From the NCBI RefSeq assembly GCF_024223415.1, contig NZ_CP100500.1: a stretch of DNA of 64,000 nucleotides; one strand, written 5' to 3'. Origin of the DNA: Escherichia coli. Lineage in GTDB: Bacteria; Pseudomonadota; Gammaproteobacteria; Enterobacterales; Enterobacteriaceae. Of the stretch, positions 62,927-64,000 are shown one piece after another; position 1 is the first letter of the stretch, and the number at the start of each line of letters is the position of its first letter. The notes beneath the pieces are model-generated. The model was not told the origin of the DNA. It did no database searches and worked only from the letters and a program-made list of their open reading frames with translations. A program made the position numbers and the translations under genes.

Positions 62927-64000
62927 ATGGACGTCAGTCGCAGACAATTTTTTAAAATCTGCGCGGGCGGTATGGCTGGAACAACAGTAGCGGCATTGGG
63001 CTTTGCCCCGAAGCAAGCACTGGCTCAGGCGCGAAACTACAAATTATTACGCGCTAAAGAGATCCGTAACACCTGCACATACTGTTCCGTAGGTTGCGGG
63101 CTATTGATGTATAGCCTGGGTGATGGCGCAAAAAACGCCAGAGAAGCGATTTATCACATTGAAGGTGACCCGGATCATCCGGTAAGCCGTGGTGCGCTGT
63201 GCCCCAAAGGGGCCGGTTTGCTGGATTACGTCAACAGTGAAAACCGTCTGCGCTACCCGGAATATCGTGCGCCAGGTTCTGACAAATGGCAGCGCATTAG
63301 CTGGGAAGAAGCATTCTCCCGTATTGCGAAGCTGATGAAAGCTGACCGTGACGCTAACTTTATTGAAAAGAACGAGCAGGGTGTAACGGTAAACCGTTGG
63401 CTTTCTACCGGTATGCTGTGTGCCTCCGGTGCCAGCAACGAAACCGGGATGCTGACCCAGAAATTTGCCCGCTCCCTCGGGATGCTGGCGGTAGACAACC
63501 AGGCGCGCGTCTGACACGGACCAACGGTAGCAAGTCTTGCTCCAACATTTGGTCGCGGTGCGATGACCAACCACTGGGTGGATATCAAAAACGCTAACGT
63601 AGTGATGGTGATGGGCGGTAACGCTGCTGAAGCGCATCCCGTCGGTTTCCGCTGGGCGATGGAAGCGAAAGACAACAACGATGCAACCTTGATCGTTGTC
63701 GATCCCCGTTTTACGCGTACCGCTTCTGTGGCGGATATTTACGCACCTATTCGTTCCGGTACGGACATTACGTTCCTGTCTGGCGTTTTGCGCTACCTGA
63801 TCGAAAACAACAAAATCAACGCCGAATACGTTAAGCATTACACCAACGCCAGCCTGCTGGTGCGTGATGATTTTGCTTTCGAAGACGGTCTGTTCAGCGG
63901 CTACGACGCTGAAAAACGCCAGTACGATAAGTCGTCCTGGAACTATCAGTTCGATGAAAACGGCTATGCAAAACGCGATGAAACACTGACTCATCCGCGC
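62927..64000 (+). CDS. fdnG: formate dehydrogenase-N alpha subunit, selenocysteine-containing (partial, continues past window end)
   Basis: Tat signal MDVSRRQFFKICAGGMAGTTVAALGFAPKQALA; in-frame TGA at 63512-63514 with open frame continuing (HGPTVASLAPTFGRGAMTNHWVD...). Confidence 0.95.
63515..63560 (+). promoter_or_regulatory. probable SECIS element for selenocysteine insertion
   Basis: Region immediately 3' of the in-frame TGA contains GGTAGCAAGTCTTGCTCC stem-loop-forming sequence; bacterial SECIS elements lie directly downstream of the UGA. Confidence 0.6.

Follow-up and report, generated by a model that had tools for sequence, protein, structure and literature searches.

A reading frame that begins close to the end of the Escherichia coli stretch analysed here (64,000 nucleotides, referred to below as the window) raises the question of whether an in-frame TGA closes a short gene or is read as an amino acid. 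The program-made ORF list gives the first answer, namely a 195-aa ORF at 62927..63514 that closes at this TGA. We consider the second answer to be correct, with a probability of roughly 98% for the explanation as a whole: the frame is fdnG, selenocysteine is inserted at UGA196 through a SECIS element and SelB, and the product is exported by the Tat pathway as FdnGH. The gene, the Sec196 codon, the SECIS element and the Tat signal are textbook material and have been known since 1991, the original demonstration being that of Berg et al. (1991), as cited in PMC13188914. The case raises no new question, and its value lies in annotation quality control: a naive ORF caller will break fdnG or cut it short at codon 196, and someone unfamiliar with the recoding might annotate the gene as a pseudogene. 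An earlier note on this DNA had described the locus in similar terms, as known biology that is easily mis-annotated, and the published record agrees with that description.

The start codon is an ATG at 62927-62929, as read directly in the sequence, and the TGA at 63512-63514 is in frame with it (62927 + 195 × 3), which makes it codon 196. Translation of the frame to the window end yields 358 codons with this TGA as the single stop; the 162 codons beyond it contain no stop, compared with 8 and 10 stops in the other two forward frames. The frame occupies the last 1,074 bases of the window and runs past the window end, such that the window holds the first third of the full CDS (3,048 nt, 1,015 aa). 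Both the in-frame TGA and the openness of the frame behind it, which the earlier note had claimed, are thus borne out by counting from the ATG at 62927. The features of the locus are collected in Table 1.

Table 1. Features of the fdnG locus, with positions in the window and the evidence for each.
Feature	Position	Strand	Evidence
Candidate FNR-box-like site TTGATTTCGCGCAA (half-palindrome), 65-78 nt 5' of the fdnG start codon	62849..62862	+	2 mismatches to TTGAT-N4-ATCAA
Shine-Dalgarno-like AGAGGA, 5 nt 5' of the fdnG ATG	62916..62921	+	Sequence read directly
fdnG, 5' part (358 codons; formate dehydrogenase-N alpha subunit)	62927..64000	+	1KQF_A 356/358, RefSeq identity, TIGR01553
Predicted Tat-type signal peptide, residues 1-33	62927..63025	+	Motif in translation; PMC10609526
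Twin-arginine motif S-R-R-Q-F-F-K, residues 4-10	62936-62956	+	Translation
Molybdopterin oxidoreductase [4Fe-4S] domain, residues 44-104 (Cys50, Cys53, Cys57, Cys92)	63056..63238	+	Pfam PF04879, 62.8 bits vs cut-off 22.7
UGA codon 196 of fdnG, selenocysteine	63512..63514	+	Alignment to 1KQF_A residue 196 and to Desulfovibrio FdhA Sec; RefSeq CDS read-through; PMC3636253
Bacterial SECIS element (Rfam SECIS_3, RF01989)	63509..63567	+	84.3 bits vs gathering score 63, E = 3e-20
SECIS paired region	63515-63557	+	SECIS_3 covariance model
Apical SelB-binding hairpin, bulged U 63528, loop G-U 63534-63535	63526-63543	+	SECIS_3 match, MFE fold
71-nt run identical in fdnG and fdoG, the longest between them	63509..63579	+	Pairwise comparison with K-12 fdoG

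The 358-residue translation is identical at 356 positions (99.4%, E = 4e-245) to residues 1-358 of chain A in PDB 1KQF/1KQG, which is the major subunit of nitrate-inducible formate dehydrogenase, and the non-standard residue 196 of 1KQF_A aligns opposite the TGA. The two differences, D249 for N and F342 for L, are strain-level substitutions. The crystallised protein is the product of K-12 fdnG (b1474), which is the same gene and shares with that of the window the Sec codon 196, the Tat motif, the [4Fe-4S] cysteines and the SECIS element, the residue count being limited to the first 358 codons that the window contains. The selenocysteine-containing alpha subunits (FdhA) of Desulfovibrio formate dehydrogenases align without gaps from end to end (E = 7e-111), again with Sec opposite the TGA, and the motifs at the Sec site are aligned (ARV-U-HGPTV in fdnG and ARI-U-HSPTV in Desulfovibrio). 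The open frame and the homology that follow the TGA are far beyond chance. The earlier note had recognized conserved molybdopterin-enzyme sequence past the TGA by eye, and had named a lack of formate dehydrogenase homology there as the finding that would speak against its reading; the two gapless alignments place such homology on both sides of the codon.

Among NCBIfam models, the top match is TIGR01553 (formate dehydrogenase-N subunit alpha, equivalog; E = 1.4e-181, with C placed at position 196). Its score of 605.7 bits lies below the cut-off of 814.2 because two thirds of the protein is beyond the window, which contains just 358 of the 1,015 residues. The [4Fe-4S] domain is followed by the molybdopterin oxidoreductase domain PF00384 (73.5 bits vs a cut-off of 24), and with both domains in the expected order the product is a catalytic subunit of the Mo/W-bisPGD (DMSO reductase) superfamily. 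At the DNA level, bases 62700-64000 are 100% identical to at least six RefSeq E. coli chromosomes among the matches listed, and the annotation is fdnG in 10 of 10 among the matches listed for the same query. At least 80% of this query is covered in 5,423 of 5,426 complete E. coli genomes. Strain SCU-316 is identical (100%) to this part of the window (62700-64000) and has the gene order yddG, fdnG, fdnH, fdnI; yddG also lies 5' of fdnG in the window. Near-identity and the fdnGHI operon context of identical, annotated DNA thus point to fdnG, the gene for the formate dehydrogenase-N alpha subunit, in agreement with the name that had been given to it from the sequence.

The TGA might still be a nonsense mutation or a sequencing error, the locus then being a pseudogene with a truncated product of 195 aa, as the ORF call ending at 63514 would have it. 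The probability of this is practically nil. Of 5,433 E. coli records, 5,366 match the TGA and the 91 nt around it with an identity of at least 99%, and this conservation refutes the pseudogene reading; moreover, the homologous codon of fdoG and fdhF is likewise TGA, the fdnG frame continues unbroken beyond the TGA with 99% identity to the crystallised protein, and a curated SECIS model matches at the site. In SCU-316, fdnG is annotated as one CDS of 3,048 nt with no pseudogene flag, and its translation meets stops at codons 196 and 1016 only. The RefSeq annotation therefore handles the gene correctly, and the ORF that ends at the TGA is a false truncation, as the earlier note had held.

For the SECIS element, Rfam cmscan was run permissively over 62600-64000. 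The SECIS_3 match spans the full length of the model with zero non-canonical pairs and is among five above-threshold Rfam matches in the whole window, whereas the sister model SECIS_2 scores only 28.8 bits on the same element. The stem-loop lies directly 3' of the UGA, within the coding region of fdnG, and its paired part falls inside the interval (63515-63560) for which a SECIS prediction had been proposed as a check. The MFE fold of 63512-63560 consists of the same helices as the SECIS_3 model (-14.6 kcal/mol). Compared with shuffled sequences, the folding energy of this segment is unremarkable (z = -1.45; 19 of the 200 shuffles are at least as stable); the SECIS call rests on the covariance-model match, and thermodynamics alone does not single out the element. 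Evidence of covariation is that contained in the Rfam model together with the comparison of fdnG with fdhF.

Alignment with the Sec sites of fdoG and fdhF, the other check that had been proposed, places Sec codons and SECIS elements at the homologous position. The K-12 gene fdoG, which encodes the alpha subunit of Fdh-O, is a paralog with TGA at codon 196 and a Tat motif, as in fdnG, and its 59-nt SECIS is identical to that of fdnG (Rfam SECIS_3, 84.3 bits). Over the first 274 codons, the two genes share 77% nucleotide and 84% amino-acid identity, but the loci differ in that fdoG adjoins fdhD. In K-12 fdhF (Fdh-H), the TGA is at codon 140 rather than 196; the local peptide ARV-U-HGP is common to all three genes. 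The gene fdhF is the experimentally dissected SECIS prototype, and work on it has established the bulged U, the loop G-U and the distance of 11 nt from the UGA as determinants of SelB binding. All three are present in fdnG: as in fdhF, 11 nt separate the UGA from the apical hairpin, and both hairpins, GGU(bulge)AGCAA-GUC-UUGCUCC in fdnG and GGU(bulge)UGCA-GGUC-UGCACC in fdhF, contain the bulged U and the loop G-U. The stem pair beside the bulge is altered on both sides, being A-U in fdnG and U-A in fdhF. The sequence of the lower stem of fdhF is unlike that of fdnG, and its SECIS is therefore placed in a separate Rfam family (SECIS_2, 87.1 bits). The fdhF product also differs from that of fdnG in being cytoplasmic and without a Tat signal.

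Read-through of UGA196 might occur without selenocysteine, by suppression with near-cognate Trp-tRNA or Cys-tRNA or in a Cys-type enzyme, with the hairpin only promoting read-through in a generic way; of the stop codons in E. coli, UGA leaks the most. We regard this as extremely unlikely, given that the hairpin fits the Sec-specific SECIS_3 model and has the same SelB-binding features as fdhF. In addition, a tRNA-Sec gene (selC) has been annotated in 5,424 of 5,426 complete E. coli genomes, and the decoding tRNA is therefore near-universal in the species; the window itself contains none of selA, selB, selC and selD. Mass spectrometry, which for FdnG used strain MC4100, detected Sec at position 196 of FdnG and FdoG and never Cys, and in a selC mutant, which is without Sec-tRNA(Sec), translation of fdnG ends at codon 196 (Zorn et al., PMC3636253). 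The SECIS_3 match, the tRNA-Sec and the published mass spectrometry of K-12 derivatives speak against decoding by another amino acid, and no real evidence against the selenocysteine explanation was encountered.

Constraint on the RNA is also visible in the choice of synonymous codons. For codons that specify the same amino acid in fdnG and fdoG, the synonymous choice was compared inside and outside codons 195-218. The same codon is used at 21 of 22 sites inside this interval and at 89 of 194 (46%) outside, which corresponds to a binomial P of ~1e-6 as calculated from those counts. Such frozen synonymous sites are what dual coding, for protein and for RNA structure, predicts, and the pattern is consistent with it; gene conversion between fdnG and fdoG could add to the freezing. 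The run identical in the two genes ends at 63579, ~22 nt beyond the base-paired region, and the freezing could therefore reflect more than SelB binding, either through recurrent gene conversion between fdnG and fdoG or through a downstream mRNA constraint that tunes recoding efficiency, although we consider this extension unlikely.

The gene fdnG encodes the catalytic subunit of formate dehydrogenase-N, a periplasmic enzyme that is induced by nitrate. The steps that lead to the active enzyme can be inferred from the literature, in which the mechanism involving SelB, SECIS and Sec-tRNA(Sec) has been summarised (PMC13188914). SelB, together with GTP and Sec-tRNA(Sec), would bind the apical hairpin of the fdnG mRNA; the ribosome would then melt the lower stem as UGA196 enters the A site, where SelB would deliver selenocysteine in competition with release factor 2 (RF2), and translation would proceed until it meets the genuine stop, codon 1016. 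Sec196 would ligate the active-site molybdenum of the Mo-bisPGD cofactor, and the folded, cofactor-loaded FdnG would be exported with FdnH across the inner membrane by the Tat pathway. The alpha subunit of Desulfovibrio vulgaris FdhAB (PDB 6SDR and related entries), a distant ortholog of the fdnG product, is likewise a periplasmic, Tat-signal, selenocysteine formate dehydrogenase. D. vulgaris FdhAB is a tungsten enzyme and a soluble heterodimer, whereas Fdh-N is a membrane-bound heterotrimer.

The twin-arginine signal RRQFFK reported in the earlier note corresponds to residues 5-10 of FdnG (62939-62956). The motif S-R-R-Q-F-F-K fits the consensus S/T-R-R-x-F-L-K at every defined position except for F in place of L, and is followed by the hydrophobic stretch ICAGGMAGTTVAALGFA and by A-L-A at residues 31-33, after which the signal peptide is presumably cleaved. 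Tat-signal profile HMMs searched with the first 48 residues scored below their curated cut-offs (TIGR01409, 11.6 vs 16.7 bits; PF10518, 12.4 vs 22.7 bits; and TIGR02811, 16.1 vs 48.45 bits). These generic profiles are short and weak, and their low scores reduce the computational support for the signal but leave intact the literature assignment, according to which both FdnG and FdoG are periplasmic and have signal peptides of the typical Tat kind (PMC10609526). The claim of an N-terminal Tat signal thus stands on the motif together with the literature, the scores of the generic models being sub-threshold.

The sub-threshold scores of TIGR01409 and PF10518 would suit a different N-terminus, namely a signal peptide of the Sec type or, as in NarG, a 'remnant' that is not exported. 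Such a reading seems very unlikely to us. The motif is close to the Tat consensus, and hydrophobic residues and an A-x-A site follow it; the protein binds a [4Fe-4S] cluster and the molybdenum cofactor (Mo-bisPGD) and must therefore fold before export; and the FdnG signal has been described as a typical Tat peptide of a periplasmic enzyme. On these grounds of motif, cofactor folding and literature, the non-Tat reading is rejected, and the Tat assignment is supported as the probable one. Each of the three alternatives considered for this locus is contradicted by several independent results.

Upstream of fdnG, the scan of 62600-63000 identified no sigma-70 consensus promoter and no terminator. 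A lack of sigma-70 consensus is expected of an activator-dependent promoter, and the result fits one. We take the FNR-box-like sequence listed in Table 1 to be a candidate for the FNR site of fdnG. The window contains many matches to this pattern (59, vs ~36 expected), and the match is therefore weak as evidence by itself; an FNR site at 62849-62862 is not claimed.

Two genes upstream of fdnG, an intact OmpC-like porin ORF of 366 aa is encoded on the minus strand (60455-61555). Its counterpart in SCU-316 is annotated as 'porin OmpC, frameshifted', indicating that this porin gene has decayed in some strains but remains whole in others. Further upstream, SCU-316 contains frameshifted pseudogenes for leucine-rich-repeat EspR1 T3SS effectors. 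The second half of the window also contains two very long ORFs, at 38182-42387 on the plus strand (1,401 aa) and at 52177-55974 on the minus strand (1,265 aa).

Two small RNAs near the start of the window, both on the minus strand, score above their Rfam gathering scores: the RydC sRNA at 1233-1296 (92.5 bits) and, at 1856-2007, the sok antitoxin RNA of a hok/sok-type toxin-antitoxin locus (107.9 bits). Group II intron domains were identified by Rfam on the plus strand at 43007-44802 (D1-D4-2 at 43007-43122 and Intron_gpII at 44727-44802). These domains flank an ORF at 43230-44309 for a reverse transcriptase/maturase, which is annotated as ltrA in identical genomes and adjoins an ISAs1-family transposase gene (ydcC). 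At least 80% of the 2.4-kb intron region is covered in just 82 of 5,426 E. coli genomes, and the intron insertion at the ltrA/ydcC locus is therefore rare.
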